Part shown: positions 25,501-64,000 of the stretch, in pieces
Position numbering within the stretch: position 1 is the stretch's first letter
Layout of the letters: the number at the start of each line of letters is the position of its first letter
Assembly (NCBI GenBank): GCA_017431175.1
Contig: JAFRLN010000034.1
Location: forward strand, 14,030 to 78,029
Source: Mogibacterium sp.
Lineage (GTDB): Bacteria > Bacillota > Clostridia > Peptostreptococcales > Anaerovoracaceae
Direction of reading: 5' to 3'
Length of the DNA stretch: 64,000 bases
The notes under the pieces: model-generated
Databases searched by the model: none
Told to the model about the DNA's origin: nothing
The model's input: only the letters and a program-made list of their open reading frames with translations
Position numbers and translations under genes: made by a program

Positions 25501-26386
25501 CTTTGTACCAGGCGACGCTGCTGCGGGTGTTCCTGCCCAGTACCCGGAGCCCTTCGTCCTTGCCCAGCTCTCGGATCTTCTTCCCGTCATCGTCAGGATA
25601 CGCTTTTAGCTTGATCGTTGCGCTCGTCTCGGTTGCTGTCTTCGTTCTGTAGAACCGGCTGTTTGACGATGCCCCCAGTGTCCCCCAGTTGTCCCATTCG
25701 GTATATGGCGTGCCGCAGTTCTTGCACATACCCGTGTATACGCCTTTTTCCGTTTTGCCCGGTGTGTGTGTTGTGCAATACTTTGGATGGGCAAAGCCAT
25801 ATACATCGTAACTATCTAGTGGGTAAGATTTACATCTTACTGAATTGCTAGAGTTCCCCTCAATCGTGTAAACTTTTCCAGCTTTTGTATATAGAACAAT
25901 CCCTATATGATCTGACAGTCCGTTTCTCCCATTGTATGCCCAATCAAAAAAAATTAAATCTCCCTCAACTGGTGTGTAACTACCTCCATATGCCTTTCCA
26001 TAATAGAATCTCTTTTGTTTTCTATATGAATCTGTTTCTGCGCATACAATATTTTTAATTACAGACTCTGGTATTCTCGCTTCTCTTGCACAATTTGATA
26101 CAAACCAGGCACACCATTCTCCGTTATAGCCATCATTCCATATCGTGTATCCATTAGCCCTCATGGCACTTTTGACACTTGATAAGGTACTAATGCCTAA
26201 ATATTTTTTAGCTTGGACAACTAACAGATGTCCTGGGCCACTCTCTTGTGCGGCGTAGACCCGTCCTGTTTCTAATTCTATGGTTTCGGATTCTATGGTT
26301 TCGGAAAAAAAAGGATAAACTGCTACCAACAAATAAATAATAAGAAGGATATTTGCTGCCCTTTTCAGAATTCTTTTCGCTCTCAT
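19529..26386 (-). CDS. Giant (2285-aa) N-terminally anchored surface protein: CHAP amidase/peptidase, SH3b, many Ig/FN3-like and Listeria-Bacteroides-type repeats, coiled coil, two C-terminal FN3-like domains
   Basis: The track ORF runs to 26398. The ATG at 26386 has GGAG at 6-nt spacing (MRAKRILKRAANILLIIYLLVAVYPFF signal-anchor). CHAP: EWCAWFVSN...SDHIGIVLY...TIEGN. SH3b: KLKAYPDDDGKKIRELGKDEGLRVLGRN...WYKVKDSKGNIGYVKASYV. Repeats with GYTFRGW, GYEFTGW and GYHFRGW. Ala/Glu/Gln coiled coil encoded around 20150-20650. I found no LPXTG, SLH or choline-binding motif. Confidence 0.85.
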   Translation of the reverse strand: MRAKRILKRAANILLIIYLLVAVYPFFSETIESETIELETGRVYAAQESGPGHLLVVQAKKYLGISTLSSVKSAMRANGYTIWNDGYNGEWCAWFVSNCAREARIPESVIKNIVCAETDSYRKQKRFYYGKAYGGSYTPVEGDLIFFDWAYNGRNGLSDHIGIVLYTKAGKVYTIEGNSSNSVRCKSYPLDSYDVYGFAHPKYCTTHTPGKTEKGVYTGMCKNCGTPYTEWDNWGTLGASSNSRFYRTKTATETSATIKLKAYPDDDGKKIRELGKDEGLRVLGRNTRSSVAWYKVKDSKGNIGYVKASYVNQYDSNKSTSNITVTLDEKARKPVTRGTKRYITGKVVSHNPVKSITIRAENPNTRKNGVITPTVIEKTMPYKNFIFRNITVSSDKDQVKALNLGDRGAGTWTISITAVDTAGQKKTATAQVVVSDPGVAAPTITEGSYKESSGKEGKYAVVTNNAGGTLYINGKGYTETSKTIPLTSVSEEGHKIVAYAKTGDGKRSPNAEKRIKVKQCIPPEINISSDGTVIITGASGDTIKYSVNGGEYVLYKAPFKGANGAVIRAYARRDGSVRSTTAEAEADLGEPEEPTVRLLNTDKTIATGETAAFSWSKDKSAESYTVMLYKETYNGGYMEQDSLETTENTAKFRLTEAGLYYVEVTAKNGQGESTSAERAEVRAVDPLTVRFIETGETGEEKVLTELKVKYGDSPEAVQEPSRPGYTFRGWENRNSGKVSPTDYTSEKITTDTDYEARYKGDTYRVRIYAPDDKLLTTREVRHGESAVTQAVTDMLEEEGYVTPGRKLQGWSVIKTSKPESAADVEHVDSDMDIKAIVTWENTELPVEIESVETVEVTRSDGEGTVFRPQNVVLEKNADETLRFYLIASLKGTDAATGIEKTLYTDRRSFEIPAGESGLVLNAGANDHDLDLAVSDSAAANAVTKLELVAVERKADGSTGGTYSALFTKEISQNTSWTEPSKWSTERPEEKPGRHVETRTTYKYRDKVVTYSGHPTVNGIKGVAETVSTTYGRWFIKNAETSTTEDDVYTTTVTEDTYKNAKKWRAYYCDCKRVARNEKDTVTCTECKSKNSNSLVVYTTSSYTPSGTTDRGAGIFAKTITATPDGTIRTMFWNGKIESSFTTSASWAQTYLWDQNVKNDLHRQKVTKTRYRYTSWDNNWKYSETEVAANSNRQIEEQTEYRYSDQIENPPEPTNLSGKAIHIDGTLNIENDLSGTQATLMVYQANNTDPNQYQMQYTGKVDIGEGNSYDFSFIPMVDPSETSGNYIVTLGLDRTTGLVTVGTVEAPKQKYLVKLQWNDGTEDKLLGQQEVEEGSDVDLSGIDVPEKEGYEFTGWDQRTTNITGNCTVNAVYRQMQNVVVFVDWQHETVDIQRTQGSITLPAETEDAEGYHFRGWKLEDGTVKAAGETIPVSGDMVITAEYDVEKYTVRFMGTDGEAVDAQEIEYHNAANPPEYTPEEGTFVSWSTAVNWWDVEKDVDVYPVIVYDEQALMPSANITAGDAEDETSEDRKVELYLEDDECGDEIFITTDGTVPTEEGIIEYLNTDKDSYTGSIKVYTEPIAFNEDTSIMAVSYAEGKNMSDIRYVFYENEPDPEDAYSTDADLTYDEWTELGTYEVKVTSDAEIQITASVTEDPGLIGYDFMIECDDAVFYADRNEYDEPVFSSGEAVSEGAVHAADLKDGYRLVWSGDATDGITGGDLLSMILHVDPDAEEGTYPIRVSYAPANTLDRDYDPVTLENVKVTVASSAVTDIATKDVTLSRTSFVYEGTPAEPAVVIEGLREGTDFTVAYENNVDVGTGKAVVTGIGDYSGTVEKEFTITQANIANADIGEIADQTKTGSAIEPALNVTFNGNTLEKDTDYEVAYANNTEVGTATVTVSGIGNFRGTANAEFQIIETVESQLEQALREKEAAEQALKEAEKQKQAAEAEKEAAEQRAKDAEEELSTTQSQLEAAQTAADEANAAKEELETQLAGEKEISEELRTQLEAAQTAADEANARLAEAEQAKADLEDQLAEANQAVEDAERQVAEANQAREEAEKRAEEAEKALEEATQGGGNTEPEVQDPPAGRVTILNTVANSAKKTNDVIWDKSKVSGATGYEINWRARGASKWASRKVGDVSRGTTSGLTIGGLYEIRVRPFKEATATAEAAYGEWSPSVYRYFYTTQKIRLASTSKGTFTMSWARDSRATGYQVLYTTNKNGSGAAQNIKTAGASATSITVKDIKVNGRATPLRSGTTYYVQVREIRKVGNTTYIGNISCPVAVRVR
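20343..20485 (-). repeat. Two identical 38-bp direct repeats, 105 bp apart, in frame inside the coiled-coil region
   Basis: TTCGCTTCATCCGCCGCAGTCTGAGCCGCTTCGAGCTG occurs at 20343-20380 and 20448-20485. Each copy encodes QLEAAQTAADEAN. Confidence 0.9.
26276..26305 (-). repeat. Perfect 15-bp tandem duplication (2 units) encoding SETIE-SETIE just after the signal-anchor
   Basis: TTCTATGGTTTCGGA occurs at 26276-26290 and 26291-26305, immediately followed by an A8 run (26305-26312). Confidence 0.9.
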
Positions 26387-26466
26387 AGTCTGCTCCATTT
26401 AAAAAGCGTAAATTACTTTGGCACTTTTAAGCGCTTGTAGCTATCTTGTATATCAGAAATTAAACC

Positions 26467-45665: not shown

Positions 45666-47387
45666 CTAGTATCTGTATCTCATAACATAGTTTCTGCTGT
45701 CATCTCTTCCGCACCAGCGCAGATAACTTTCCGCTCCGCTTCTGACCGCGATGGAGTCATGGCTCCAGCCGAGTCCTTCCGCGTCTACGTAAGTGTCGCC
45801 TCCCGCGAACATCCATACATGGCCGTTGCCGTTATCGCTTGACCAGTCGACGATGACATCTCCAGGCTGCAGGTCCTTGGTGTGCAGCTCAGAGCATTTT
45901 CCTATCTTCATCCAGCAGGAGAAGACGTTGAAGTTGTCATTATTGGAGTACATCGTCATCTTGCCGCGCTGACACTTGTACAGGATCTCCGGATCTCCCG
46001 CGCCGTGAGCGTAAGCCGCGCCGAGGAATGTCAGGCATACGTATGTCTTCTCATATCCCTTTGGCTTGGTGCGCTTGTTGGTACCGCAGAAGTAACATCC
46101 TACTTCGCTTGCGGCAGGCTTAGCGCCGTATGAGAAGGAGTTGTCTGCTGCTATCCTCTTAGCCCAGTTGACCGCCAGCTGAGGCTTGTTGCTCGGCCTT
46201 ACTGTGAATGCCTGGTTGAGCGCGAGGGTAACGCCGCTTGCGGTATGTACATATATCCTGTAACGGTATGTTCCGCCAGGCAGCAGGTTGACCTTGAGTT
46301 TAGGCGCCGCCCATTTCAGATAGAAGGACTTCGCGTTGACAGACTTATTGTCATATTTGTATGCGGTCCACTTGTTGGTCGGGCCGAATACGATGCCGAC
46401 TTCGACACGCTTGATCACTTCCGTTGAATCTATCCTGCCGGAAGCTGTGAAGGTTTTACCGACACTGCAGTTCGCCGGTTTGTTTACTCCGACGAGAGTG
46501 ATCTTGCTGTTGACCTTCTGAGCTGTCTTAGCAGAAGTATCATTGGTCATCTGCTCTTTTTCTGTCTGGGTACCGGTTCCGACCGGGGTCTTGACTCCGC
46601 CGCTCTTCGCTGATGAGCCGCCGGTGTTTTTAGGCGCACTCTTCGCCGCAACAGTGAATGTGTGGTTGAGTACGATGTGTACTTTGCCGTCTGCTGTATG
46701 GACATAGACCCTGTAGCAATAGGTACCGGCCTTAAGCGCGCTGAACTTGATCTTGCTGTCTGCCTTGGACAGATCGAAAGTCTTGGAGTTGACACTCTGG
46801 TTGTCATACTTGTATGAAGTCCAGCCGCCGCCTTTTACAGCAATACCTGCTTCTACTCTCTTGATCACGGAAGACGAAGTCAGTTTGCCCTTGACAGTGA
46901 ATTTCTGTCCGGCGATAAGTCCTTTCGGAAGCGCGTGACCGCTTATCGTGACCCCTGTTGTCGTTTTAACAGTGGATGTTGCTTTTGCGACAGTGAACTG
47001 CTGATTAAGAACGGTATGGACCTTGCCGTCACTTGTGTGAACATATATCCTGTACTTATAGGAACCGTGGTTCAGTTTCCCGAACGAAAGCTTGCTGTCT
47101 GCTTTGCTCAGATCGAAGGTCTTGGCATTGACGTTCGCGTTGTCATACTTGTACGCGGTCCATTTGTTATACGCATTTACAATGCCGACCTCTATCCGGT
47201 CGATCTTAACGGTTGAGCTTATCTTGCCTCGTATGATAAAGCTCTGTCCTGCTTTGAGCGCCGTAGGCGCCGTGTAACCCGATATGGTTACTTTGCTGCC
47301 TGCCGCGTACGTAAACGCGGTCGATGCCAGCATCGCCGTGATGGTCAGAAGCAAGACAAATAATCGTCTCTTTCCTGATTTAAACAT
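45666..47387 (-). CDS. Secreted protein: three ~103-aa tandem beta-rich repeats + C-terminal Cys-rich NlpC/P60- or CHAP-like domain (paralogue of the 40513..41925 C-terminus)
   Basis: The track ORF starts at 47447. The ATG at 47387 with AAGGAG RBS gives the signal peptide MFKSGKRRLFVLLLTITAMLASTAFTYAAG. Repeats lie at about 46989-47297, 46650-46955 and 46200-46508. C-terminal GCYFCGTN, GYEKTYVCLTF, PGDVIVDW, NGHVWMFAGGDTYVDAEG, NYVMRYRY. Confidence 0.75.
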   Translation of the reverse strand: MFKSGKRRLFVLLLTITAMLASTAFTYAAGSKVTISGYTAPTALKAGQSFIIRGKISSTVKIDRIEVGIVNAYNKWTAYKYDNANVNAKTFDLSKADSKLSFGKLNHGSYKYRIYVHTSDGKVHTVLNQQFTVAKATSTVKTTTGVTISGHALPKGLIAGQKFTVKGKLTSSSVIKRVEAGIAVKGGGWTSYKYDNQSVNSKTFDLSKADSKIKFSALKAGTYCYRVYVHTADGKVHIVLNHTFTVAAKSAPKNTGGSSAKSGGVKTPVGTGTQTEKEQMTNDTSAKTAQKVNSKITLVGVNKPANCSVGKTFTASGRIDSTEVIKRVEVGIVFGPTNKWTAYKYDNKSVNAKSFYLKWAAPKLKVNLLPGGTYRYRIYVHTASGVTLALNQAFTVRPSNKPQLAVNWAKRIAADNSFSYGAKPAASEVGCYFCGTNKRTKPKGYEKTYVCLTFLGAAYAHGAGDPEILYKCQRGKMTMYSNNDNFNVFSCWMKIGKCSELHTKDLQPGDVIVDWSSDNGNGHVWMFAGGDTYVDAEGLGWSHDSIAVRSGAESYLRWCGRDDSRNYVMRYRY

Positions 47388-47576
47388 AAAACTGCTCCTT
47401 ATCTCATGAAAACTAAAACATGTGATGTTAAACAGTTTAGCTTCCACGACAAGAGCAGTTCAACGTTTCTTATCATTCATATATCTTTAATTCTGTTAGT
47501 GAAGTACGCTTTACGGTAAAGTCTTCTATACGTTGAAATTTCAAGGCTTTCAGGCTCCGTCCGTTCAACGGGATCT

Positions 47577-48827
47577 TCACCTTTGGATGATCCTTGCCAG
47601 CACTCTTTCGGACGCGTGTCCGTCGTCTTTCGGATTGTATTTCGCGCAGAATTCTTCGTATTTTTCATCCGGCTGCCACTCATCGCACGCTCTGATCTCA
47701 CGGATCAGTGCATCTTCGTCTCTGACGATCGGACCCGGCAGCTCGTCAAGAGAGATATAGAATCCTCTCAGCTCGCCCGCGTATTCCTCCAGATCGTACA
47801 TATAGAAGATCTCCGGTTTTCTCAGGTTGGCATAATCGAAGAATACGCTGGAATAGTCTGTGATGAGTATGTCAGCGGCAATGTAGAGATCATTGATGTC
47901 GCTGTAAGACGACACGTCTCTGACAAAGCCTTCGTATCTGTCAAAATCAAAACTGTTCGCTACGAGATAGTGAGCGCGGAACAGGATGACGTACTCCTCT
48001 CCGAGTTCATCCCTGAGCCTGTCAAAATCGACTTCGGTTTTGTACGTATATCCCTCGCCGCTGGTGTGCTGATTGTCTCTCCAGGTCGGCGCGTAGAGTA
48101 TGACTTTCTTATCGTCTACCCCGAGGCTTTTTCTTATCTCCGCCCTTTCCTCCGGACCGGCGGTTATCAGGCGGTCATTGCGCGGATATCCTTCTTCAAT
48201 GATCTTGCCCGTCTGTCCGGTCCTGACAAGATCCCACGCCGTGGAGAACTTCTCAGTCGCGAAAGGTGAAGGTGACAGCAGATAAGAGAACTTAGCCGCG
48301 TCAGTCCTGTACTTGCTCCTGATCTCCTCGATCGAATTCATGGAGTTGTCGCTGCTTTCAAGGTCATAACCGAGTCTCTTGAGCGGAGTTCCGTGCCAGC
48401 ACTGTACGTATACCTGTCCTCTGCGCGGATGCTGGTGATCGAGCATCCTGTAATTGGAGATCCAGTACTTCGCCTTGCGGAGAGCTTTGTTGTCCGCCCT
48501 TGTGCGGAACTTCACGATCTCCGTTCTGTCGTTTGTCAGGAAGCTGTATTTTTCAGGCTCCTTAAAACTCCATACGAACCGGAAGTCGCTGTATTCCGGC
48601 GCGCTCAGCATATATTCGTACATAGCCTTCGGCGAATCACTGTATCCGCGGCCGGAAAATGTCTGGAAATACACCAGTCTGTCATCGATCCGGGCAAAAG
48701 GTTCGTCCATGACCATGCGCGCGTGGTACAGCGCGTCTCTTCCTGTCCTGGCCGCTACGCGGAAAGGTTTGTTCTTCTTGGCCAGGTCGAATATTTTCTT
48801 TTTGACTTTCTTTGCGATCTTATTCAC
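47577..48827 (-). CDS. CDP-glycerol glycerophosphotransferase (TagF/TarF family)
   Basis: 416 aa. QCWHGTPLKRLG, ILYAPTWRDN, ILFRAHYL, ILITDYSSVFFDYANLRKPEIFYMYD. Confidence 0.85.
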   Translation of the reverse strand: MNKIAKKVKKKIFDLAKKNKPFRVAARTGRDALYHARMVMDEPFARIDDRLVYFQTFSGRGYSDSPKAMYEYMLSAPEYSDFRFVWSFKEPEKYSFLTNDRTEIVKFRTRADNKALRKAKYWISNYRMLDHQHPRRGQVYVQCWHGTPLKRLGYDLESSDNSMNSIEEIRSKYRTDAAKFSYLLSPSPFATEKFSTAWDLVRTGQTGKIIEEGYPRNDRLITAGPEERAEIRKSLGVDDKKVILYAPTWRDNQHTSGEGYTYKTEVDFDRLRDELGEEYVILFRAHYLVANSFDFDRYEGFVRDVSSYSDINDLYIAADILITDYSSVFFDYANLRKPEIFYMYDLEEYAGELRGFYISLDELPGPIVRDEDALIREIRACDEWQPDEKYEEFCAKYNPKDDGHASERVLARIIQR

Positions 48828-48840
48828 GTCTGCCTGCCTG

Positions 48841-49923
48841 TTATCTGATCTGCGACTGGATGAAATCAGCCAGCTGTTCTGTGCAGTGTCCCGGTTCTAC
48901 TTCTATATACTTGTCTCTGAAAGCCTTCAGGGCTTCCATATCATACGGCTTCTCCATAGCCGCCGCGAGTTCTCCGGCATCTCTGAACACATAGTCCGCG
49001 ATCGCTTCTTCCCCGAACTTCATGTTGAGCCCGGTAGTCTCGCTGTACTGGTCGATATCATAAGTGTAGAGGTAAAGCGGCTTGTCCGCGATGGTTGCCT
49101 CTACCACAAGAGATGAATAATCACTGATGACCGCGTCCGCGCATGCCATAAGATCATAGGTCGAGATATTATCCTCATATATGACATGGTCTGCCTGCGG
49201 CAGTTCTCCCTCTGCCTTGTACAGAGGATGCAGTCTTACGATAAGCTCATATTTCTCAGGATCGAGCGCTTCAACGAGGCTCTTCACATCAGGCGTGCTT
49301 CCCCTGCGGAAAGTCGGCGCGTACAGCACAACGGTCTTTTCGCTGGCCGCAAGATGCGGGTAGAGAGCATACACAGCGCCCATCGCTCTGTATCTTCTGT
49401 CGCCCTTCGTTACATCCAGGATGTAGTCCGCTCTCGGAAGGCCGAGCTTGACGACTTTGCCCGGATCGGTCCTGAACGCTTCTGCAAAGTGAGCCGCTGT
49501 AGCGTCGCTCGGAGCGATCACGTAGTCATAACCCTTGTGCATCCTCATGATGCGGGCCGTTCTCTCCCGCGTGCCGTCTTCACTTCCGACTGTCTGCCAG
49601 CCGAACTTCTTGACAGCGCTGAGCGCGTGCCACATCTGGATCACTTTGGTCCTGCCTGTATGCGGGAGCATGCTTACCGGAATGATGTAAGTGTCGACAA
49701 CTACCACATCTGCCCATACCATGGCTGCTGCCTGGCTGAACATGTGTCCTGCGTAGCTCAGCGACTCCTCTCTTGTCTTGTCCTTGGTAAGCAGTCTGGT
49801 CAGCGTGCGGACTTCGACCCCGCGCTTCTGAAGCTCTTCCTCGAGCATCACGATATCCAGACTCTTGCTGTTGCTCTCGCGGCTTATTATCGCGACTTTG
49901 CCTTTTCTCTTGTTCTTACTCAA
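48841..49923 (-). CDS. CDP-glycerol glycerophosphotransferase (TagB-like, short form)
   Basis: 360 aa. IQMWHALSAVKKFG, VVLYAPTFRRG, VRLHPL, AVISDYSSLVVEATIADKPLYLYTYD. Confidence 0.8.
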   Translation of the reverse strand: MSKNKRKGKVAIISRESNSKSLDIVMLEEELQKRGVEVRTLTRLLTKDKTREESLSYAGHMFSQAAAMVWADVVVVDTYIIPVSMLPHTGRTKVIQMWHALSAVKKFGWQTVGSEDGTRERTARIMRMHKGYDYVIAPSDATAAHFAEAFRTDPGKVVKLGLPRADYILDVTKGDRRYRAMGAVYALYPHLAASEKTVVLYAPTFRRGSTPDVKSLVEALDPEKYELIVRLHPLYKAEGELPQADHVIYEDNISTYDLMACADAVISDYSSLVVEATIADKPLYLYTYDIDQYSETTGLNMKFGEEAIADYVFRDAGELAAAMEKPYDMEALKAFRDKYIEVEPGHCTEQLADFIQSQIR

Positions 49924-49940: not shown

Positions 49941-50246
49941 TTACGGCTGATCCTGTGATTCAGATTCCGGATTCGTATCATCTTCCGGCGGAGTATCCGG
50001 CTCATCTTCAGGCGGTGTATCCGGAGGTGTGTCCTGCTTCTCAACTATATCCGGCATTCTGATCAGATCTTCGTCATTATCTGTTATTTCCAGTTCTGTT
50101 TTGGCGGTTGTAATATCAAGATCATAATTCTTGCTTATGAGCAGCAACTTCAGATACAGGTTCTTTTTCTTATTCTTATCCGAATTATCCTCGGCTATTT
50201 TCTTGGAGATCACAATGACCTGGACCCCAGCGTTCTCTTCAGCCAA
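49941..50246 (-). other. 101-codon ORF (TTG start) overlapping the 3' end of the upstream gene in another frame; likely a frameshifted continuation of it
   Basis: The frame is open upstream to about 50295. It reads ...AEENAGVQVIVISKK...TPPDTPPEDEPDTPPEDDTNPESESQDQP. No convincing RBS of its own. Confidence 0.4.
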
Positions 50247-51304
50247 GGAGTCCGCTTTTCCTTGCTCATATCGTCTTCGAACAAGACAATGTATTTCGGA
50301 TTCTCATCTTCGCCGACTGGATTTCCGATACAATCTGCAGCAAGGCTTTTGAGGGCATCATCATTTCCTAGAGGGCAATAGAACGGAATTGGTTTTGTGT
50401 CTTTTGCGATTAAATCTATTGCGGCGCTGAGAGTATCATTCCAGTACTTGAATCCATCCCAGTGCGCGTACCATGTCTGGTCAGATGTTACAGGCGCATC
50501 CGGTTTTATCTTATTTCCGCCTGTCGGTGCTGAAAACCATCCGAGGAATTCATATCCTTCACGGTCCACCTCAGGAAGCGTCCCGTAGCTGTCACCTTCC
50601 GGAACATTGACAGTTATGGTATCCAGTTCCTCTGCATTAGGATCAAACGTCACAGTGAAGGATGGCTTGTTTTTCTCTTTCCACTGGGCGAAGAGTGTGT
50701 GGTTCTTTGTTACTCTGACGACAGTTTGGGAACCGACTTTCTTGCCCTTGGACGTGTACCATCCGAGGAAGTCGTATCCCTCTCTTGTTGCTTCCGGAAG
50801 ATCACCGTATGCTTCACCGATCTCTACCGTAAGCGTCTTTACCTCGCATTTTCCGCCGTTCGGATCAAGCGTTACTACGATCTCCTGCGGCTCCGGATCG
50901 GATTCACCTTCATCGTCGTTATTCCTGCTGAGTGTGCCGCCACCGCCGCCTGCTCTTTTCTTCTTCGGCTTTTCACTCTGAGGGAGGATCTCCGGTTCTT
51001 CTTCCTCTTCTGCCGGATCGTAGTCCTCCAGCCTGCCGACATCGTAATCGTCATAGTCCTCTTCCGGTTCTTCAGGAGAACTGAAACCATTGAAGAAAGG
51101 TTTCTTCGCTTTATCCAGACCCAGTTCATCTCTTCTCATCTGATACTCAGCCGACATGAACACATCCTCGTCGTATACAACGGAGAGGACTTCATCATTG
51201 TTGCTCAGCCTGGTCCTGCAGCCGCACAAACCCAGCATCAGTATCAGAACTGACGCGATACAGCATATTCTTGATAAATATCTGCTGTTTTTTCTGCTCA
51301 TCAT
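50210..51304 (-). CDS. Lipoprotein with two Listeria-Bacteroides-type repeats (possibly truncated by a frameshift)
   Basis: 364 aa. The signal MMSRKNSRYLSRICCIASVLILMLGLCGC contains a lipobox-like LCGC. Repeats contain GYDFLGWYTSKGKKV and GYEFLGWFSAPTGGNKI. The start overlaps the upstream stop (ATGA). Confidence 0.7.
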   Translation of the reverse strand: MMSRKNSRYLSRICCIASVLILMLGLCGCRTRLSNNDEVLSVVYDEDVFMSAEYQMRRDELGLDKAKKPFFNGFSSPEEPEEDYDDYDVGRLEDYDPAEEEEEPEILPQSEKPKKKRAGGGGGTLSRNNDDEGESDPEPQEIVVTLDPNGGKCEVKTLTVEIGEAYGDLPEATREGYDFLGWYTSKGKKVGSQTVVRVTKNHTLFAQWKEKNKPSFTVTFDPNAEELDTITVNVPEGDSYGTLPEVDREGYEFLGWFSAPTGGNKIKPDAPVTSDQTWYAHWDGFKYWNDTLSAAIDLIAKDTKPIPFYCPLGNDDALKSLAADCIGNPVGEDENPKYIVLFEDDMSKEKRTPWLKRTLGSRSL

Positions 51305-52701
51305 AATGCGTATTTCAGTTTTGTCCGGACTTTGGCCATAAAGTCGGATCTCTGCTCTATCATTTCTACTGTATCATTCATAAACGTGGACATCTCTGTC
51401 CTGTTCTTCTCGGTCATTTTATGATCACTGTATGACGCTTCCTGCCACAGCGCGTACATATCTTCATATCTGTACGCGTACTCTCTCGACATCTCTTCTC
51501 TCAGTGATGGTATCAGGGAGGCAAACGGCTTGCCTGAAATATCTATGCCATATGCCTCAAGCCACCTGACGCAGTACGGGAACATAGCTGCTATCGCCGC
51601 ACCCGGATCGGCTGAATCGATGCCTTGCTTGTTGTCTTCAATTCTCTTCTTAAGCCTTCTCCAGTACAGGAACGCCGCGACTCCTAAAGCGGCAATGATC
51701 AGGAAGGTGACTGAAAGAGCTCTGAAAATTCTGCGTATCACAGTGTTTTCTGCAGCTTCCTTTTCTGCTTTCTCCTTCTCCATCTGATCCTGTTTCTGTA
51801 ACTCGCTGAGGTCGCTTGTGTCCTCTTCCGGGTTCTCGATATATGCCGACCTGAAAGCGAATCTGTCTCTGAGGTTCTCATCCATTCTGGAGATCCCGAT
51901 GCTCTCACCCGGATTGATCAGCACAACAGCGCCAAAGAGTATCACTACTGCAAGCATCAGCGGAAGTGTTGACAGCAGATTCCCTCTCGTAAAAGCAGTT
52001 ATGCATGCCAGGATCAGTACCCCGGTCCATATCCAGGAAGGGATCATCCCGTAGTAGGCGAAAGCGATCATCACAGCTGCCGCGGTAAACGCGCACATAC
52101 CGCGTCTGTAGTCGGCAGTCGGGATCGCGGAGATCAGTCCGGCGAGCCCTCCGAGCCAGAGTGCCCCCAGCCTGGTGCACATGACCGGCGAAGTGTTGGC
52201 GATCTCAGGAACCACGAACCTGTCATATATGTATGCCTGTGACTGTTCAGCCATATCGTAGAAGTAACCGGATATGAGTGCTATTCCTCCTCCTATCCGT
52301 GTACGCCATATGGCAATGGTTGCGATCAGTATCACCAGAACAACTCCGGCGATGATCCATCTGAGCTTGCCCGGCTTCATGGATTCAGCCATGGTGATCG
52401 CAAGATAAACCAGCACGCCGGAAGCGGCGAACGGGATCATCCCGCTCACATAGGCGGCAGCCAGGAAAACGCTTACGGCAGCGAGGACAACGGCCGCGCC
52501 CGAAAGGTTGAGCATAAGGTCCTTCTTCCATCCTGCCTCTGTCTCCTCTTCCGGATATTTCAGTATCGGCTCATCGTTTCTGACGTTGACCTCAAAGCTG
52601 TCCGCGGAAGGATCATACAGATCGAACGTGATCATACCCTCATCAGGCTCAGCAGCTTTTCTATTCTTTTTTGTCTCAGGCAACTTAAACTGTAATTTCA
52701 A
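51301..52701 (-). CDS. Polytopic membrane protein with C-terminal DUF4129-like cytoplasmic domain (third member of a MoxR/DUF58 triad; no transglutaminase core seen)
   Basis: 466 aa with about 8 TM segments. A coiled acidic/basic linker QKQDQMEKEKAEKEAAEN, a further TM, then ...CVRWLEAYGIDISGKPFASLIPSLREEMSREYAYRYEDMYALWQEASYSD. Confidence 0.5.
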   Translation of the reverse strand: MKLQFKLPETKKNRKAAEPDEGMITFDLYDPSADSFEVNVRNDEPILKYPEEETEAGWKKDLMLNLSGAAVVLAAVSVFLAAAYVSGMIPFAASGVLVYLAITMAESMKPGKLRWIIAGVVLVILIATIAIWRTRIGGGIALISGYFYDMAEQSQAYIYDRFVVPEIANTSPVMCTRLGALWLGGLAGLISAIPTADYRRGMCAFTAAAVMIAFAYYGMIPSWIWTGVLILACITAFTRGNLLSTLPLMLAVVILFGAVVLINPGESIGISRMDENLRDRFAFRSAYIENPEEDTSDLSELQKQDQMEKEKAEKEAAENTVIRRIFRALSVTFLIIAALGVAAFLYWRRLKKRIEDNKQGIDSADPGAAIAAMFPYCVRWLEAYGIDISGKPFASLIPSLREEMSREYAYRYEDMYALWQEASYSDHKMTEKNRTEMSTFMNDTVEMIEQRSDFMAKVRTKLKYAL

Positions 52702-52706
52702 TTACT

Positions 52707-53846
52707 CTATACCTCAATACCGGCAAGCTCATTCTTATATGACCCTCTGCTGAAACCGGCTATCGTAAGATTAGTCTCGCTTGCGGTGCCGTCTGCTCCG
52801 TACAGGAGTATGGTGACCTGGCATCCGTTGGTGATCGCTTCGATACCCTCAGGTATCCTGGAACTGACTATTATGATATGAGCGTATCTGCTCTCTGCGA
52901 CATCTCTCTCTATCCTGCCGAAGGCGCTCGGCCCGGAGCTCGGCACAGCAAGATATTCATCTGCGGCGGACGCCGCTTCTGCTTCGTCCTGTATCCTGCG
53001 GATCACCGCTTTGCCCGTATCCGGGTTGGTCCAGCCGGCTGACAGAGCGTATCCGTCATTCAGTATCGAGTGTATCAGAGACGCGAAAACTGACGCGGCT
53101 GCGTCAAGGGCAAAAGGATCCTGCGCTATATCCGGAGCTGTATCGAGGATCACCAGGAACTGGTCTGTTACAGGGCTTCCGAGTTCTTTGACCAGAAGCT
53201 TGTCTGTCTTCTCCGACAGCTTCCAGTGGATATTTCTGACCGGATCACCCGGAACATATTCTCTGATCCCGGTGATGTCTCCGGGGTCATTTCCCCTTGC
53301 GTGCTCCTGGTATCTGTCGTTCTCGAGCATTGCTGCACTGCTGGTATATGACAGCATGATGTCGAATATTTCAGGCATAACAGTAAGGTGCTCCTCTCCG
53401 GAACACTCTGCTGTTTTGCTCCATATACCGAGAGTATCCGCGATCTGTGCGGATACTATAGACACTTTATATCTGCCTGCGTGTCCGGGAATGACTTCAA
53501 GAGCGGTCTCGCTGTGTCCGCGCGGCGGCAGAGCTTTGCTGACAGAATAGCTGTCAGTCTCTCCCGTCCTCAGATTGACGCAGCTTACATCTACATCCGC
53601 GGACGCGACCGGGATCATATCCGGATTGGACATAGTCAGGAGGACCGTGTGCTTATCAGGCGACGGGTCCGTACCGCTCAGACCGATACTGATATTCCTG
53701 CCGGAGATCCTGAGCAGTCCCAGGGATGCTGCCGGGAGGACGATCAGCACGATCAGGACAGCAAGCGTCACGGTCTCATTGGAGAACAGATACAGTATTA
53801 ACGCTGCAGCTATCAGGATGCAGCATACTATTCTTCTGATTAGCAT
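52707..53846 (-). CDS. DUF58 family protein (vWA-like, MoxR-associated)
   Basis: 379 aa with two N-terminal TM segments. Signature GDITGIREYVPGDPVRNIHWKLSEKTDKLLVKELG. Confidence 0.8.
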   Translation of the reverse strand: MLIRRIVCCILIAAALILYLFSNETVTLAVLIVLIVLPAASLGLLRISGRNISIGLSGTDPSPDKHTVLLTMSNPDMIPVASADVDVSCVNLRTGETDSYSVSKALPPRGHSETALEVIPGHAGRYKVSIVSAQIADTLGIWSKTAECSGEEHLTVMPEIFDIMLSYTSSAAMLENDRYQEHARGNDPGDITGIREYVPGDPVRNIHWKLSEKTDKLLVKELGSPVTDQFLVILDTAPDIAQDPFALDAAASVFASLIHSILNDGYALSAGWTNPDTGKAVIRRIQDEAEAASAADEYLAVPSSGPSAFGRIERDVAESRYAHIIIVSSRIPEGIEAITNGCQVTILLYGADGTASETNLTIAGFSRGSYKNELAGIEV

Positions 53847-53862
53847 CTGTGTATTCTGACTC

Positions 53863-54822
53863 CTATAAGCTGTTCGGTGTCCTGACGTTATCCATCAGCA
53901 GCTTCAGTATATCCTGCGGCGTGGTGCCGGCGGCTCTTGCTTTCTGCGTGAGCAGGATCCTGTGCGCGCATACATCGATGAATATATCGCGGATATCTTC
54001 CAGGGTGACATAGTCTCTCTTCTGCATCAGCGCGTTGGCTTTGGCCATGTGACTTACAGCGATAGCACCTCTCGGGCTGATACCGAGTTCGATGTTCGGA
54101 TTGTCACGGCTCGCCGCGACCAGATCTGCAATATATCTTACAAGAGGCTCCTTGATGGTGACCTGAAGAGTGGCGGCCTGCATCGCTTTCACAGAATCAT
54201 TATCTATGATCTGCCTTACGGACGCGTACGGATCAGCCGTCTGTCTTCCCTGGATGATCGCTACTTCACTGTCCTTGTCAGGGTAGCCGATCGCGAGCCT
54301 GACGAGGAATCTGTCCATCTGCGCGTGAGGAAGCACCTGTGTTCCTGCTGCGCCGACCTGGTTCTGTGTCGCGATAACGATAAAAGGATCCGGAAGCTTG
54401 TGAGCCTTACCGTCAACTGTGACCTGCTTTTCTTCCATAGCCTCAAGCAGCGCAGCCTGCGTTCTGCTCGAAGTACGGTTGATCTCATCGGCAAGCACGA
54501 GATTGGTGCTGTTGATAACACCCGGCATATAGACAAAAGTATTGTTATCCTTGTTGAATACAGAGAATCCGACTATATCCGAAGGAAGTACATCCGGAGT
54601 GAACTGGATCCTGTTGTATTTCATTCCAAGTGTCCTGCCGAGCGCGACCGCGAGCGATGTCTTTCCGACACCCGGTACATCATCGAGAAGGATGTGTCCG
54701 TTGGCAAGGATACTCATAAGCACCTTGCGGATGACATCCTGCTTACCGATTATGACTTTGCTTACTTCTTCATTGATCGCCTGTGTTGCCTTGTACACAG
54801 CCTCTACTGTCTTCTCGTGCAC
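53863..54822 (-). CDS. MoxR-family AAA+ ATPase
   Basis: 319 aa. GTG start with GGAGG 8 nt upstream, inside the end of tagH. Walker A DDVPGVGKTSLA, Walker B LVLADEINRTSSRTQAALLEAMEE, FIVIATQN, DRFLVRLAIGYPD. Confidence 0.9.
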   Translation of the reverse strand: MHEKTVEAVYKATQAINEEVSKVIIGKQDVIRKVLMSILANGHILLDDVPGVGKTSLAVALGRTLGMKYNRIQFTPDVLPSDIVGFSVFNKDNNTFVYMPGVINSTNLVLADEINRTSSRTQAALLEAMEEKQVTVDGKAHKLPDPFIVIATQNQVGAAGTQVLPHAQMDRFLVRLAIGYPDKDSEVAIIQGRQTADPYASVRQIIDNDSVKAMQAATLQVTIKEPLVRYIADLVAASRDNPNIELGISPRGAIAVSHMAKANALMQKRDYVTLEDIRDIFIDVCAHRILLTQKARAAGTTPQDILKLLMDNVRTPNSL

Positions 54823-54825
54823 TTT

Positions 54826-55671
54826 TTAAGCCTCCTGTTTTATTGTCTGAGCAGCTTTTTGCGCGGCAGCCTGCTGTTCAGCGGCCTTCTCCTCTGCTGC
54901 TTTCTTTTCGGCAGCTCTCTTCCTTGCTGCCGCTCTCTCTTCCGCGTTCGCCGGATCATAGAAATCGATCGCGTCATCTATCGGCCCGTCAAATTTCTTC
55001 ACTCCCTTTTCGAGGACAATACCTCTGTTGCAGAAATCTCTTGAAGTAGAAAGCGAGTGAGTTACGAACAGCAGCGTCACATCATCGTTTTTCATGATCT
55101 CCGCGACTTTGTCCTTGCACTTCTTCTGGAAGTTCTTATCCCCGACACTCAGCGCCTCGTCTACGATCAGGATGTCCGGATTGGAGTTGACGCTTATGGC
55201 AAAACCAAGTCTTGCTCTCATACCGCTTGAATAAGATCTCAGAGGCTGATCTATGTATTCTCCGATATCAGCGAATTCGATGATATCTTCTTCGACAGCG
55301 GCGATCTCATCCTCAGTCATGCCCATAAGGCTGCACTTGAAGCCGATGTTCTCGCGTCCGGTGGACTCATTGTCAAAACCTGCGGTCAGCTCGAGCAAAG
55401 CGCTTACCTTGCCTTTTACATATACCTCGCCCTCGGTAGGGAAGGTGACTCCCGTTACCATCTTGAGGGTCGTGGATTTGCCGCATCCGTTCCGCCCGAA
55501 CAGAGCCACACTCTCGCCTTTTCTGACTTCAAAGGAGAGATGGTTGATGGCCTTATTTTCCTTGTACTTGATCTTCTTGGAAAACAGACCTTTGAATCTG
55601 TCCCGGCTGCTTTTATAAAGCCTGTAGATCTTAGTTACATCATTAAAACGTATTACTACTTCATTTTCCAT
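54826..55671 (-). CDS. tagH: Teichoic acid / polysaccharide ABC exporter ATP-binding protein with Ala/Lys/Glu-rich tail
   Basis: 281 aa. FGRNGCGKSTTLK, YSSGMRARLGFA, ILIVDEALSVGD. The N-terminal beta-hairpin IRFNDVTKIYRLYKSSRDRFKGLF is typical of TagH/Wzt. The tail is ANAEERAAARKRAAEKKAAEEKAAEQQAAAQKAA. Confidence 0.8.
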   Translation of the reverse strand: MENEVVIRFNDVTKIYRLYKSSRDRFKGLFSKKIKYKENKAINHLSFEVRKGESVALFGRNGCGKSTTLKMVTGVTFPTEGEVYVKGKVSALLELTAGFDNESTGRENIGFKCSLMGMTEDEIAAVEEDIIEFADIGEYIDQPLRSYSSGMRARLGFAISVNSNPDILIVDEALSVGDKNFQKKCKDKVAEIMKNDDVTLLFVTHSLSTSRDFCNRGIVLEKGVKKFDGPIDDAIDFYDPANAEERAAARKRAAEKKAAEEKAAEQQAAAQKAAQTIKQEA

Positions 55672-55688
55672 GATCTATATTCCTTTAC

Positions 55689-56495
55689 TTACAGAACATC
55701 CGGAATCTCCTTACGGAGTCGGCGGTATGCCCACAGGGCGCCCAGAGTAAATACGAACAGTGTTACACAGTAGCACAGCAATTCGACCTTGTCTTCAAAG
55801 AACCACTGCTTGTATATAAAGGTCCTGCGGTATCCGCTTGATATGACTGTGACAGGATTGAACTTGAGCAGCAGCCTTACCCAGCTGTGCTGGATAGTAT
55901 CTACATTGTAGATAATACCCGACATCCAGAAGATCGCCTGGGATAATGACCCGACCAGGTTCTGGAAGTCTTTGCTGATCGCGGAAAGCAGACCGGCGAA
56001 AAGAGCCCACACCGTGAAGAACAGGAACATCATCAGCATGTAGAGCGGTATCTGCAGCAGATAGATATCCGGCATATATCCGAAGCACATATACAGAATA
56101 ACTGTAACTACACACAGGAATATATGCGTATACAGATGTGAGATGTTGACATACGTCGGTATGATCGAGATCGGGAATTTCATCTTGGTGACCAGATGAC
56201 TGTATTTTCTGATACAGGCTGCGCCGCCTGTGATCAGTTCAGACATGAAGAACCAAGGGAGAAAACCCGCTTCCAGCCACAGGAAGTAAGGATATCCTTC
56301 TACCTTACCGCCTGCCCTCAGACCTATTGTAAACGCGAACCAGAATACAAATAGCGTTATCATAGGCTTGATGAGCGCCCATGCCCATCCGAGAGCAGCA
56401 CCTCTGTAAGTCTTGATCAGGTCTGACTTGGCGAGATTGAATATCTGCGCTCTGAACGAAATATGTTCGTCAACTATTGTTTTGATCGTTTCCAC
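55689..56495 (-). CDS. tagG: ABC-2 type exporter permease
   Basis: 268 aa with 6 TM segments. N-terminus ...FRAQIFNLAKSDLIKTYRGAALGWAWALIKPMITLFVFW is typical of TagG/Wzm. Confidence 0.8.
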   Translation of the reverse strand: METIKTIVDEHISFRAQIFNLAKSDLIKTYRGAALGWAWALIKPMITLFVFWFAFTIGLRAGGKVEGYPYFLWLEAGFLPWFFMSELITGGAACIRKYSHLVTKMKFPISIIPTYVNISHLYTHIFLCVVTVILYMCFGYMPDIYLLQIPLYMLMMFLFFTVWALFAGLLSAISKDFQNLVGSLSQAIFWMSGIIYNVDTIQHSWVRLLLKFNPVTVISSGYRRTFIYKQWFFEDKVELLCYCVTLFVFTLGALWAYRRLRKEIPDVL

Positions 56496-61354: not shown

Positions 61355-64000
61355 TTATTGTATTTCTGAATAGATCCTTGAACAGTTGCTCCTGTCGTTA
61401 TATCTGAGCCGCTCATCAGCCCTTCTACGGTATTCTTCTTTCTGTCTGCAGCCCGAACGCATATATTCTATGATCCTGCCGGCCAGGTCCTCTTCCGTAT
61501 ATTCGACTTCCCCGAATCCATCGGTCTCATAATCATACGTTCCGCATGAAACCATGTGTTTTCCGGAGAAGAATTCTTCTCTGTCAAACTGCGCGTATAT
61601 CACCGGTTTATGAAGGACCGCGAAGTCACACGCAGCGGATGAGTAGTCAGTCACGAGCAGTGCGCTCCTGCTGACGATCTCTTCATATGGCATGTCACCG
61701 CCTTTGATCTCAACAGTATCAGGAAGCCCGAAGGCTGCCGCCGCCTCTTCGCTGAAGGAAGGATGTACCCTGAACCAGATCTTATATCCAAGGCTATCCG
61801 CTTCATCGAGAAGCTGCCGGTCACCTGCCAGTTCCCTGAAGAATCCCGCGTACCTGCTTGAAGCAAAATCATCGGTCAGCTTCCATCTGCCGTTTTCCTG
61901 ATCCTGTCCTGTCACAAGGTATCTCCGCCAGGTAGGCATAATGCAGATGATCTTTTCGCTGCTGTCGCTGAGCTTGTCCCACTTCGGAAGACCGGTCAGA
62001 AGGATATCCTCCTCCGGATATCCGTAGGATTCCCCGAGCAGATCATCCCGCTCCTGCTCTGAGGAAACGATGAACGCAGAAATGTTCTGTTCGTCCTTGG
62101 ACAGCCATTTTGAGCAGTCTGAGAGCAGTACACCGCTCTGCAGGAAGACGAATTCTGTAGTGAAGATCAGACTTCTGAGAATCTCAGTCGCGCGCTCGTC
62201 CTGATACCACGGGTTCCTGAAGATCATATCTGTCTGTGACGCTATGATCTTACGCGCTTTCAGAAGAAGCATCCTGTGCCTGAATGATCCCGGCTGCACC
62301 AGCGCGAACCCTTTTCCTCTGAGCCTCTTTGCGTCGCTGCAGTTTCCGTCGATCACGAAGTAACACTTCTGTCCGGCATGCTCTTTCTGCAGATATTCAT
62401 AGAACGCTTCGCCGTTGTCTCCCGCCTCTGCAAGACGGTCTGACACGAGCCAGATCTCACGGGTCGGATCTGTCTTCCAGAACAGACTGAGCAGTCTGTA
62501 CAGAATACCCTTCAGGCGATATGGTTTCTTAGAGAAAACGATCTCTCCTATATTCCTGATCTCCAGCTTCCACCGCTTCGCGTAGGAGCAGCGGACGATC
62601 CTGAAGTGATCTTTGAATACTCTCAGCGCAAAACCTCTGCGGCAGATATAGTCGTGCCTCTGCTTTCTGTTCAGCCCGGAGAGCCTGCCGTATGTGATCT
62701 TTCTGACCGGTATCGCTCTGTCGCCTATCGTGCTGACCAGTCTGATCTTCCTGCCGGTGAGACCGTCTGTGACATCAAGAGATCCATGGAACCGGATCTC
62801 GGTATAGGCGTAGTCGCCTTCTTCCTTCATGACATCGCAGGTCTCTCTCTCAAGTTCGAATGTCCTGTTTCCTGCCTGGATACAGATGTCCGGAGTCTCG
62901 CCGTCCGGAGTCCAGTAATATCTGGCGGTCCCTTCGATGCGCAGCTTCCCGCCGGAAAGACCGATATCGCGGATCCTGCAGTAATCCTGCCCGAGCTCTC
63001 CAAGTGGGATATCCCCCCAGACTCTCGAATATGTGACGCTTCCGTTTTCGTCTGTCTCTTCCTTCACTCGGATAGCTTCCGGAGCAAGCGCTCTTGCGGC
63101 CATGACTCTTATGTCGGTCTTCACGATCTTCCGGAAAAGCTCAGGGAAAAATTCCGTCGTCTCCGCGGTCCTCCAGAAGTCAGCGCCATATGGATGTATC
63201 ATCCTGTGCCACGGTTTGCGGCTTCCTGCATAGTGTACGATGGCCACCTCGTCCGGGCTGATCATAAGGTCTTTTCTGAGATAGTCCGGAAGGTACATAT
63301 TGTCGCCGTAATCCGTGACCATGCCCCATTCAGGGCCGATATAATGAATATGTCCCGCGCACAGGATGTTGACTACGTCCTGATCGTGCTGTCTCCAGTT
63401 AGTATCTGTCGCCAGCTTAAGGATACCTTCGAGGCTGAAGAGCTTTCTGAACTGCTCGAGGTTGAACAGAATCGTCCCCGCGATGATATAGTCGTCAAGG
63501 GCTGTCAGTCCTATTGACTTTCTGTACTCGGCGAAATCGCTTCCCGGCTTGTAGACGCTGCATATACCCCAGTAGTCACGGAGCGCGGCGATGTAGCTGT
63601 CTCCGATATCCAGATAGAGCAGTTCTCCTACATCCCGTCTGACGAGCATATCCGCGTCCAGATACAGAGCGAATCTGTATTCTTTGCTCAGGACCCACGG
63701 CGCATACAGTCTGTAATAAGTTTCCTCTGTCAGGGTCTCGCGGTTGGCGGTATAGAAGTTGATCCCGGCCGTATATTCCGTCAGATCCAGAAATCTTATG
63801 GCAAGATTGTCTGTACCCTCCGCCATTTCGGTCACCATAGCCTGATGCTCTCCGGTGATATCGCGGTGCATGATCACGATATCATAGCACCTGTCTTCTG
63901 ACATATGATCGGCTATGGATTTTATCATAACAGCGAGAGGCGCGATAAAACCGTCATTGGCAGAGAACAGAATGCATCTGTCTGTCCCCGCGAACGCAGG
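61355..64000 (-). CDS. Bifunctional fusion: N-terminal GT8 glycosyltransferase + C-terminal CDP-glycerol glycerophosphotransferase (TagF family); 5' end beyond the window
   Basis: The frame stays open through 64000 (my translation: PAFAGTDRCILFSANDGFIAPLAVMIKSIADH..., a GT8-type N-terminus). GT8: LYLDADMLVRRD, ILFNLEQFRK, DQDVVNILC. TagF: IMPTWRRYLV, FRVHPSF, LLVTDYSSAACDFAVLHKPVIYAQFD. Confidence 0.8.
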   Translation of the reverse strand, partial: PAFAGTDRCILFSANDGFIAPLAVMIKSIADHMSEDRCYDIVIMHRDITGEHQAMVTEMAEGTDNLAIRFLDLTEYTAGINFYTANRETLTEETYYRLYAPWVLSKEYRFALYLDADMLVRRDVGELLYLDIGDSYIAALRDYWGICSVYKPGSDFAEYRKSIGLTALDDYIIAGTILFNLEQFRKLFSLEGILKLATDTNWRQHDQDVVNILCAGHIHYIGPEWGMVTDYGDNMYLPDYLRKDLMISPDEVAIVHYAGSRKPWHRMIHPYGADFWRTAETTEFFPELFRKIVKTDIRVMAARALAPEAIRVKEETDENGSVTYSRVWGDIPLGELGQDYCRIRDIGLSGGKLRIEGTARYYWTPDGETPDICIQAGNRTFELERETCDVMKEEGDYAYTEIRFHGSLDVTDGLTGRKIRLVSTIGDRAIPVRKITYGRLSGLNRKQRHDYICRRGFALRVFKDHFRIVRCSYAKRWKLEIRNIGEIVFSKKPYRLKGILYRLLSLFWKTDPTREIWLVSDRLAEAGDNGEAFYEYLQKEHAGQKCYFVIDGNCSDAKRLRGKGFALVQPGSFRHRMLLLKARKIIASQTDMIFRNPWYQDERATEILRSLIFTTEFVFLQSGVLLSDCSKWLSKDEQNISAFIVSSEQERDDLLGESYGYPEEDILLTGLPKWDKLSDSSEKIICIMPTWRRYLVTGQDQENGRWKLTDDFASSRYAGFFRELAGDRQLLDEADSLGYKIWFRVHPSFSEEAAAAFGLPDTVEIKGGDMPYEEIVSRSALLVTDYSSAACDFAVLHKPVIYAQFDREEFFSGKHMVSCGTYDYETDGFGEVEYTEEDLAGRIIEYMRSGCRQKEEYRRRADERLRYNDRSNCSRIYSEIQ

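Follow-up and report, generated by a model that had tools for sequence, protein, structure and literature searches.

A candidate four-gene MoxR-DUF58 module with its own lipoprotein at the tagH-tagB junction of a Mogibacterium teichoic-acid-type operon

In Borrelia and Bacteroides, MoxR-type AAA+ ATPases are reportedly encoded in Bat-type operons, together with DUF58 proteins and inner-membrane partners that carry vWA domains. Another association is found in bifidobacteria, where the PFNA cluster comprises genes for a Ser/Thr kinase, an FN3 surface protein, a MoxR protein, a DUF58 protein and a transglutaminase (aaa-atp/duf58/tgm; PMC8430577). For mycobacteria, a review states that MoxR1 helps to export the wall hydrolase RipA (PMC12067865). 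Here we analyse a stretch of 64,000 nucleotides (nt) from Mogibacterium sp., a member of the Clostridia (assembly GCA_017431175.1, contig JAFRLN010000034.1, positions 14,030 to 78,029), which as a whole is called the window. Within it, genes for a MoxR ATPase, a DUF58 protein, a polytopic membrane protein and a lipoprotein (collectively, the cassette) lie between the genes for a tagGH-like exporter and those for two glycerophosphotransferases. The best reading of the data is that the cassette represents a variant of the uncharacterised MoxR-DUF58 systems that has its own lipoprotein and that, in certain lineages of a single genus, resides in the tag operon. All cassette and tag genes of this region are on the minus strand, and are given here in the order of transcription:

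55689..56495, minus strand: tagG-like ABC-2 permease, 268 aa (PF01061 ABC2_membrane, 1.6e-17)
54826..55671, minus strand: tagH-like ABC ATPase, 281 aa (PF00005 ABC_tran)
53863..54822, minus strand: MoxR-type AAA+ ATPase, 319 aa, GTG start (AAA_3, 4.9e-53; AAA_lid_2, 3.8e-22)
52707..53846, minus strand: DUF58 protein, 379 aa, with two N-terminal hydrophobic helices (PF01882, 26.2 bits)
51301..52701, minus strand: polytopic membrane protein, 466 aa, with a DUF4129-like C-terminal tail and without a transglutaminase core
49941..51304, minus strand: Flg_new lipoprotein gene (Flg_new, 7.6e-28), with a one-base frame break near 50255
48841..49923, minus strand: TagB/TarB-like glycerophosphotransferase, 360 aa (PF04464, 1.8e-49; NF041711 TarB, 1.6e-33, below cut-off)
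47577..48827, minus strand: TarF-like glycerophosphotransferase, 416 aa (PF04464, 7e-108; NF041712 TarF, 3.9e-95)

The tight spacing reported by the initial annotation was borne out when the junctions were read again. The tagH stop codon (TAA) is followed after 3 nt by the MoxR GTG at 54822, and the GGAGG that precedes MoxR sits within the final codons of tagH. Between the stop of MoxR and the DUF58 ATG at 53846 there are 16 nt, and between the DUF58 stop and the TTG of the membrane-protein gene at 52701 there are 5 nt; the Atlas record begins the membrane protein at residue 7, in which case this last gap is 23 nt. The stop of the membrane-protein gene and the ATG of the lipoprotein gene overlap as ATGA at 51301-51304, and the lipoprotein stop, once corrected as described below, falls at 49941, which is 17 nt before the TagB TTG at 49923. 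Terminator-like sites number 23 in the window versus 13.7 in shuffles, and none is located at a cassette junction, while the count of promoter-like sites (21 versus 19.8 in shuffles) is uninformative. Judging from the spacing, cassette and wall-polymer genes most likely share a transcript. Pieces of RNA-library contigs from one study (X14 and X15) that are 100% identical to the window cover MoxR, DUF58, the junction between DUF58 and the membrane-protein gene, the lipoprotein gene and TagB, as well as the junction of TagB with TarF. None of these pieces covers tagG or tagH at 54812-56315, and such contigs cannot show transcripts, starts or absence.

The host operon resembles TagGH/TarGH operons, in which an ABC-2 permease and an ATPase are followed by Glyphos_transf genes, and an insert-free version of it exists in congeners. 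We know of no MoxR or DUF58 genes in the TagGH/TarGH operons that have been described. In the window, the ABC-2 permease gene adjoins the ATPase and Glyphos_transf genes, and PF04464 is matched by three genes of the operon. The Pfam and NCBIfam matches, together with the junctions, agree with the earlier claim that MoxR, DUF58 and the membrane protein are encoded between tagGH and two Glyphos_transf genes with no intergenic room. TagH, TarB and TarF are the best-scoring NCBIfam families for the respective proteins although each falls below its equivalog cut-off (for TagH, NF010066 at 214 bits versus 320 and NF010065 at 248 versus 538; for TarF, NF041712 at 319 bits versus 550), and therefore we call the polymer teichoic-acid-type or teichoic-acid-like, not proven teichoic acid.

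When the cassette is set beside the described systems, both likenesses and differences are evident. Bat-type partners carry vWA domains, whereas the cassette has neither a vWA/MIDAS partner nor Bat proteins. The PFNA-type triads of MoxR (MRP subfamily), DUF58 and transglutaminase share with the cassette the order MoxR, DUF58, polytopic membrane protein, as well as a surface protein of beta-sandwich repeats encoded alongside, and function is not established in either (PMC8430577). Unlike the PFNA triad, the cassette lacks a transglutaminase core and a Ser/Thr kinase, its surface partner is a Flg_new lipoprotein that is always encoded directly downstream, and it is located inside a teichoic-acid-type operon. 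The mycobacterial ripAB-moxR1-DUF58-vWA neighbourhood likewise has MoxR and DUF58 genes beside cell-wall genes, and a secreted wall enzyme is proposed there as the MoxR client (PMC12067865). Its third gene, however, encodes a vWA membrane protein and not a DUF4129-tailed one, and the system belongs to Actinobacteria and neighbours peptidoglycan hydrolases instead of teichoic-acid genes. The literature searched, which excludes subscription journals and was accessible in part, yielded no published connection between MoxR and teichoic acids, in keeping with the earlier remark that no such description was known; nor did it yield anything joining MoxR with DUF4129 or anything relevant on yeaC/yeaD/yebA.

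The initial annotation had regarded MoxR, DUF58 and the membrane protein as a triad dedicated to the assembly or remodelling of TagGH and TagF. Three observations correct or weaken this view. First, the unit consists of four genes and not three. The order MoxR-DUF58-membrane protein-Flg_new lipoprotein holds in three contexts, at all related loci whose sequence extends far enough, and the Flg_new gene is directly 3' of the membrane-protein gene at 12 of 12 annotated loci of the genus that are unlinked to tag genes. Second, the cassette and the TagG orthologue show no association within the window's genus. Among the 66 other species genomes of this genus, 33 encode the membrane protein and 39 a TagG orthologue (59-93% identity), with both present in 21 genomes, only the cassette in 12, only TagG in 18 and neither in 15. 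Third, the cassette and the teichoic-acid operon are located apart in most relatives. Flanks were taken for 31 cassette loci, with 4 dropped as too short upstream and 7 as too short downstream; tagGH lies directly upstream of MoxR at 6 of the 27 informative loci, and a TagB orthologue directly after the lipoprotein gene at 7 of 24. Twelve tagGH loci were also inspected, nine from congeners that lack the cassette and three from genomes that carry it elsewhere. Two of these nine (G616 and G604) present an empty site, where the TagB orthologue begins within ~115-135 nt of tagH and has the TarF orthologue after it. G607 carries its cassette at a distance of 50 kb, and its tagH leads straight to the TagB orthologue; no TarF orthologue was found within the fetched stretch.

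The linked arrangement does recur, however. In a pattern scan of species genomes, four more proved to have the complete tagG-tagH-cassette-TagB-TarF series, in which the gaps range from 3 to 75 nt between tagH and MoxR and from -4 to 17 nt between the lipoprotein gene and TagB. Two metagenome contigs (L081 and L082) have tagGH upstream of the cassette as well, and membrane-protein identity across all linked loci (six congeners and these two contigs) is 41-61%. Uniqueness to this genome had been suggested by a thin family sample (membrane protein in 7 of 200 genomes and in 0 of 2 congeners, both of which lacked tagH too), and was overturned by the full genus search. The initial annotation would have been undermined by an arrangement confined to this genome and by triads linked elsewhere to unrelated genes; the former is not the case, while the latter is, as exemplified by basal loci of the genus that adjoin HGD-D metabolic genes and, in two cases, also Lit (lipoprotein transacylase). 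Partial linkage is observed too, with TagB only at L028 and L182, tagGH only at L167, TagB/TarF on the other strand at L183 and TarF 6.5 kb off at L185.

A dedicated chaperone of the TagGH exporter or of the TagB/TarF synthases, made up of MoxR, DUF58 and the membrane protein and co-transcribed with its clients for this reason, has in its favour the 3-nt gap with the ribosome-binding site (RBS) inside tagH, the gene order repeated among diverged loci, the spread of the linked loci over two distinct clades of the cassette tree, and the retention of TagB beside the cassette without tagGH at L028, L182, L079, L080 and L089. The pairing of MoxR1 with RipA beside mycobacterial cell-wall genes, as given in the review, would serve as a precedent (PMC12067865). 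Such dedication is difficult to reconcile with the 18 congeners that have TagG but not the cassette, six of which are 90-97% complete (G595, G603, G616, G633, G634, G646), with the 12 that have the cassette but no TagG orthologue, with the 21 of 27 informative loci at which tagGH is unlinked, with the metabolic and Lit neighbours of the basal loci, or with the finding that no tag genes lie near the cassette outside the genus. A survey of MoxR loci in Clostridia for nearby tag genes, the reverse of the one that the initial annotation had proposed, points in the same direction. AAA_3 MoxR proteins were found in 107 of 300 sampled genomes of the class, and one MoxR gene in each of 60 genomes was examined with flanks of +-10 kb. 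None of these 60 other MoxR loci has homologues of TagG, TagB, TarF or the membrane protein in that range; nine have generic ABC-ATPase matches only (23-29% identity), and the MoxRs surveyed are 36-45% identical to that of the window. We consider a dedicated Tag chaperone quite improbable.

The lipoprotein gene, which is the constant fourth member of the cassette, is interrupted in the assembly. As assembled, its open reading frame (ORF) spans 50210-51304, encodes 364 aa and ends 286 nt before TagB; orthologues have 440-530 aa. In tblastn comparisons with four orthologues, the match changes frame near 50255-50258 and continues to the stop at 49941. Contigs from all four public runs compared (two DNA and two RNA libraries) have an extra letter at 50255, in a minus-strand A-run, and thus the gene, split in the window into 50210-51304 and 49941-50258, is intact in the samples and encodes ~454 aa. 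The one-base break is an error or a rare variant of the assembly, the 286-nt gap before TagB is artefactual, and the correction matters for the annotation of this genome. The protein comprises a lipobox (LCGC), a conserved membrane-proximal segment, an acidic, charged and disordered linker, two Flg_new B-repeats and a C-terminal alpha/beta domain, and the family invariants are G28, C29 (lipobox), R30 and R32. A fold search with a model of an ortholog returned B-repeat matches only (InlB, YwfG and a sialidase), with no match for the C-terminal alpha/beta domain. At two loci, the neighbour of the cassette lipoprotein gene is Lit, a lipoprotein intramolecular transacylase (L187:4399-5214 and L189:8013-8774).

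The third protein has an architecture that departs from that of its usual counterparts. No Pfam or NCBIfam family matched the 466-aa sequence even at E<=10. Its AF2 model (31-row alignment, pLDDT 75) is all-helical, with approximately eight membrane helices and then a ~60-residue acidic stretch (263-323), poorly modelled and either helical or disordered, before the final membrane helix and a tail of five helices. The initial annotation had seen no transglutaminase core, and the profile search agrees, with no match to Transglut_core (PF01841) at E<=10; there is also no space for such a core, because the ~60 residues of segment 263-323 between the last two membrane helices are too few. The DUF4129-like tail that it had proposed is supported at the level of profile-profile comparison and has no match to the Pfam family itself (PF13559). 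In hhalign, residues 348-440 match the C-terminal part of a third partner that has a transglutaminase core, found within the same family of genomes, at 94% probability (E 1.3e-7), and residues ~348-440 match an alignment of 14 DUF4129 tails at 90% (E 1.5e-6); Atlas leads for the protein are DUF4129 and TgpA_N. On the basis of these alignments, we regard the tail as homologous to that of transglutaminase-bearing third partners, such as those of the transglutaminase triads noted above. A canonical third partner, in genome G160, has the transglutaminase core at 7.5e-19. The window's own genome has two Transglut_core matches, on contigs C52 and C115; the one inspected, on C52, was discarded as a canonical partner because it proved to be an unrelated secreted-type protein. 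A PDB fold search with the model gave nothing at E<=0.001, the best match being a HEPN-like bundle at 0.14. The N-terminus and tail are predicted to be cytoplasmic because the charges of KPGKLR, RR and RRLKKR, as read by eye, fall on one side, and the conserved segments 132-171 and 263-323 would then face outward.

The two remaining cassette proteins match known families. MoxR scores 178.9 bits against PF07726 (cut-off 27) and 78.2 bits against PF17863, its Walker A (GVGKTS) and Walker B (LADE, within LVLADEINR) motifs are intact as read by eye in the translation, and its identity to the MoxRs of close relatives is 73-89%. The DUF58 protein passes the PF01882 cut-off of 23.4 bits, although the match covers only profile positions 2-78 of 216. 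Among 33 orthologous sequences, the motif REYxPGDxxRxIHWKLS is near-invariant, and the MIDAS-like position in the vWA-like part is not conserved. A MoxR-vWA conflict or defence system was considered and rejected: PADLOC models gave no match for DUF58, the membrane protein or the lipoprotein and two weak AAA matches for MoxR (E 2-3e-4), and no vWA or effector domain was found in the Pfam scan. A second MoxR (319 aa, 67% identical) with a truncated DUF58 gene is present on contig C66 of the window's genome (G000; L002, 1992 bases), a contig that cannot be placed. This copy is sister to the genus clade in the MoxR tree, and the pair may be a paralogue or derive from a co-binned strain; the source metagenome-assembled genome is 71% complete with 3.6% contamination.

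Neighbourhoods outside the genus bring a different set of genes into view. A 5'-nucleotidase-family protein (5_nucleotid_C, often with SLH) adjoins the cassette in 16 distinct loci, its gene either immediately preceding MoxR or lying a short way beyond the lipoprotein gene, and a SAM methyltransferase (49-58% identical) adjoins it in 11 loci. Both travel with the cassette in distant Clostridia (L014, L017, L018, L037, L091, L093, L096 and others), where the module is larger than that of the window. A Metallophos protein is encoded directly upstream of MoxR at L084, L168, L174, L175 and L178, an arrangement seen at some loci of the genus, and some loci have metal- or vitamin-related neighbours, namely an ECF transporter, a CsoR-type repressor and FecCD. 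Several MoxR-vWA pairs insert metal cofactors. These neighbours and that background would fit a system for maturing a wall-anchored 5'-nucleotidase or metallophosphoesterase, re-used in the genus beside genes for phosphodiester-linked wall polymers. However, the cassette of the window has no 5'-nucleotidase-family, methyltransferase or Metallophos gene nearby, the only 5_nucleotid_C gene found in its genome is on another contig, DUF58 has no conserved MIDAS-like position and neighbourhood is the sole kind of evidence, so that we hold phosphoesterase maturation to be very improbable. Other neighbours were seen at single loci or in small groups. In one sub-clade (L179, L184 and L186), MoxR is immediately preceded by genes for a secreted CAP-domain protein and for a two-component pair of the HAMP/HisKA type, beyond which L186 also encodes a 1031-aa TIR_2 protein; in a related genome, a Cas9-Cas1 locus (L014:20-5016) lies ~3 kb downstream of the cassette region.

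The setting of the cassette in the window also has to be considered. Ahead of tagG and tagH lie three further genes, listed here in the order of transcription, after which the series continues through MoxR, DUF58, the 466-aa protein and the Flg_new lipoprotein to the TarB-like and TarF-like genes:

61355-63928, minus strand: GT8+Glyphos_transf fusion
upstream of the GT52/polysialyltransferase-like gene, minus strand: 904-aa protein with no clear family
directly before tagG in the listed gene order, minus strand: GT52/polysialyltransferase-like protein

The whole 64-kb window is an envelope-polymer island with GT4, several GT2, Glyphos_transf, flippase, MBOAT and YkuD genes and the gene for a 2289-aa surface protein. 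This giant protein (19529-26398, minus strand) has CHAP, Flg_new, Flg_new_2 and Fn3_assoc domains, and has the B-repeat type in common with the cassette lipoprotein. A 593-aa protein (45666-47447, minus strand) has weak Ig-like matches only; many congeners encode homologues of it (26-59% identity) 3' of their tag genes, so that it seems to belong to the tag cluster as a rule. Since the entire window is such an island, any insert would acquire envelope-polymer neighbours, and one could suppose that the cassette has no tie to wall polymers and landed neutrally in recombination-prone surroundings. The independent occurrence of cassette and TagG, as well as the varied contexts of the cassette within the genus, would be expected of such a pure passenger. 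Against neutral landing, the insert is precise and in frame with the operon, shares an RBS region and has no terminator-like site at its junctions; its position is kept in two clades and across 41-61% membrane-protein identity, remnants of partial linkage persist (L028, L167, L182, L183 and L185), and most derived loci are flanked by envelope genes of several kinds. A purely neutral passage therefore seems unlikely to us.

Several points weigh against regarding the cassette as a self-contained module. In a concatenated tree of MoxR, DUF58 and the membrane protein, built from 33 rows with quick IQ-TREE and rooted on two loci from outside the genus, the tag-linked loci form part of two separate, fully supported clades, one composed of the window, L165 and L026 and the other of seven rows that include two unlinked loci, and the sister loci of each linked clade are for the most part unlinked. 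The tree requires a minimum of four changes of linkage state, and a single grouping of the linked clades is rejected with a p-AU of 0.0038, in a test weakened because the group was named after the tree had been seen. Given two linked clades, linkage was gained more than once or was long kept, which hints at a benefit of the position. The most economical history has the cassette enter the tag operon once, early on, with the linkage broken repeatedly thereafter, and the alternative is more than one placement; under either history, the tag position of the cassette is not obligatory. Furthermore, unlinked loci of the derived clade are often flanked by YfhO, MBOAT with AlgX-like, Acyl_transf_3, NTP_transferase, YkuD and NlpC/P60 genes, and since many unlinked loci of the genus thus lie among envelope-polymer genes, a looser tie to wall polymers may exist. 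The data themselves call for some reserve as well. The genomes compared are kin, so that the counts are not independent; the genes of the relatives were called by our own ORF script and tblastn with no gene finder; and the topology was judged by eye from model helices and charge distribution. Binding of the lipoprotein to the membrane protein is putative, and a complex prediction with residues 56-466 of the latter and 29-100 of the former gave a score of 0.01, which weighs neither way.

Taken together, the constant gene set, the unit character and the distribution of the cassette are consistent with a self-contained four-gene envelope module that has come to lie at the tagH-tagB junction. Because the lipoprotein is a constant partner and a wall-anchored 5'-nucleotidase accompanies the cassette outside the genus, the client is more likely to be found among surface proteins than to be TagGH or TagF, and we consider this reading, on balance, the probable one. 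From sequence and models, we infer the following topology, client and mechanism. The cytoplasmic MoxR ATPase would supply ATP-driven remodelling, and would act through a membrane-anchored, vWA-like DUF58 adaptor whose bulk is predicted to face the cytoplasm. DUF58 could then pass the remodelling to the cytoplasmic DUF4129-like tail of the polytopic membrane protein, which appears to have a ~60-residue acidic linker in place of the transglutaminase core of the usual partner. Conserved outer loops of this protein may relay the change to its putative partner, the extracytoplasmic lipoprotein with two InlB-type B-repeats. In this species and a minority of congeners, the presumed module sits whole at the tagH-tagB junction.

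A bolder proposal is that the cassette encodes a transmembrane MoxR machine that draws on cytoplasmic ATP to mature or control proteins of the outer face, namely its own B-repeat lipoprotein and, in other lineages, a wall-anchored phosphoesterase of the 5'-nucleotidase type, and that is truly coupled to wall-polymer biogenesis or turnover. This we offer as a speculation with a modest chance of being correct. If true, the repeated placement of the cassette among genes for wall polymers that contain phosphate or are decorated (tagGH/TagB/TarF, YfhO, MBOAT/AlgX and acyltransferases) would reflect real functional coupling. For teichoic-acid biology, the outcome is mostly negative, since the operon can do without the insert, which is a passenger confined to particular lineages and not a missing component of export. 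For MoxR-DUF58 systems with a third membrane partner, which are widespread and have no established function, the locus may be more instructive. Because the core has been dropped while the tail is kept and the lipoprotein is constant, the tail and the surface partner, and not an enzyme core, look like the business end of the system, and the cassette provides a small and defined set of four proteins for testing.

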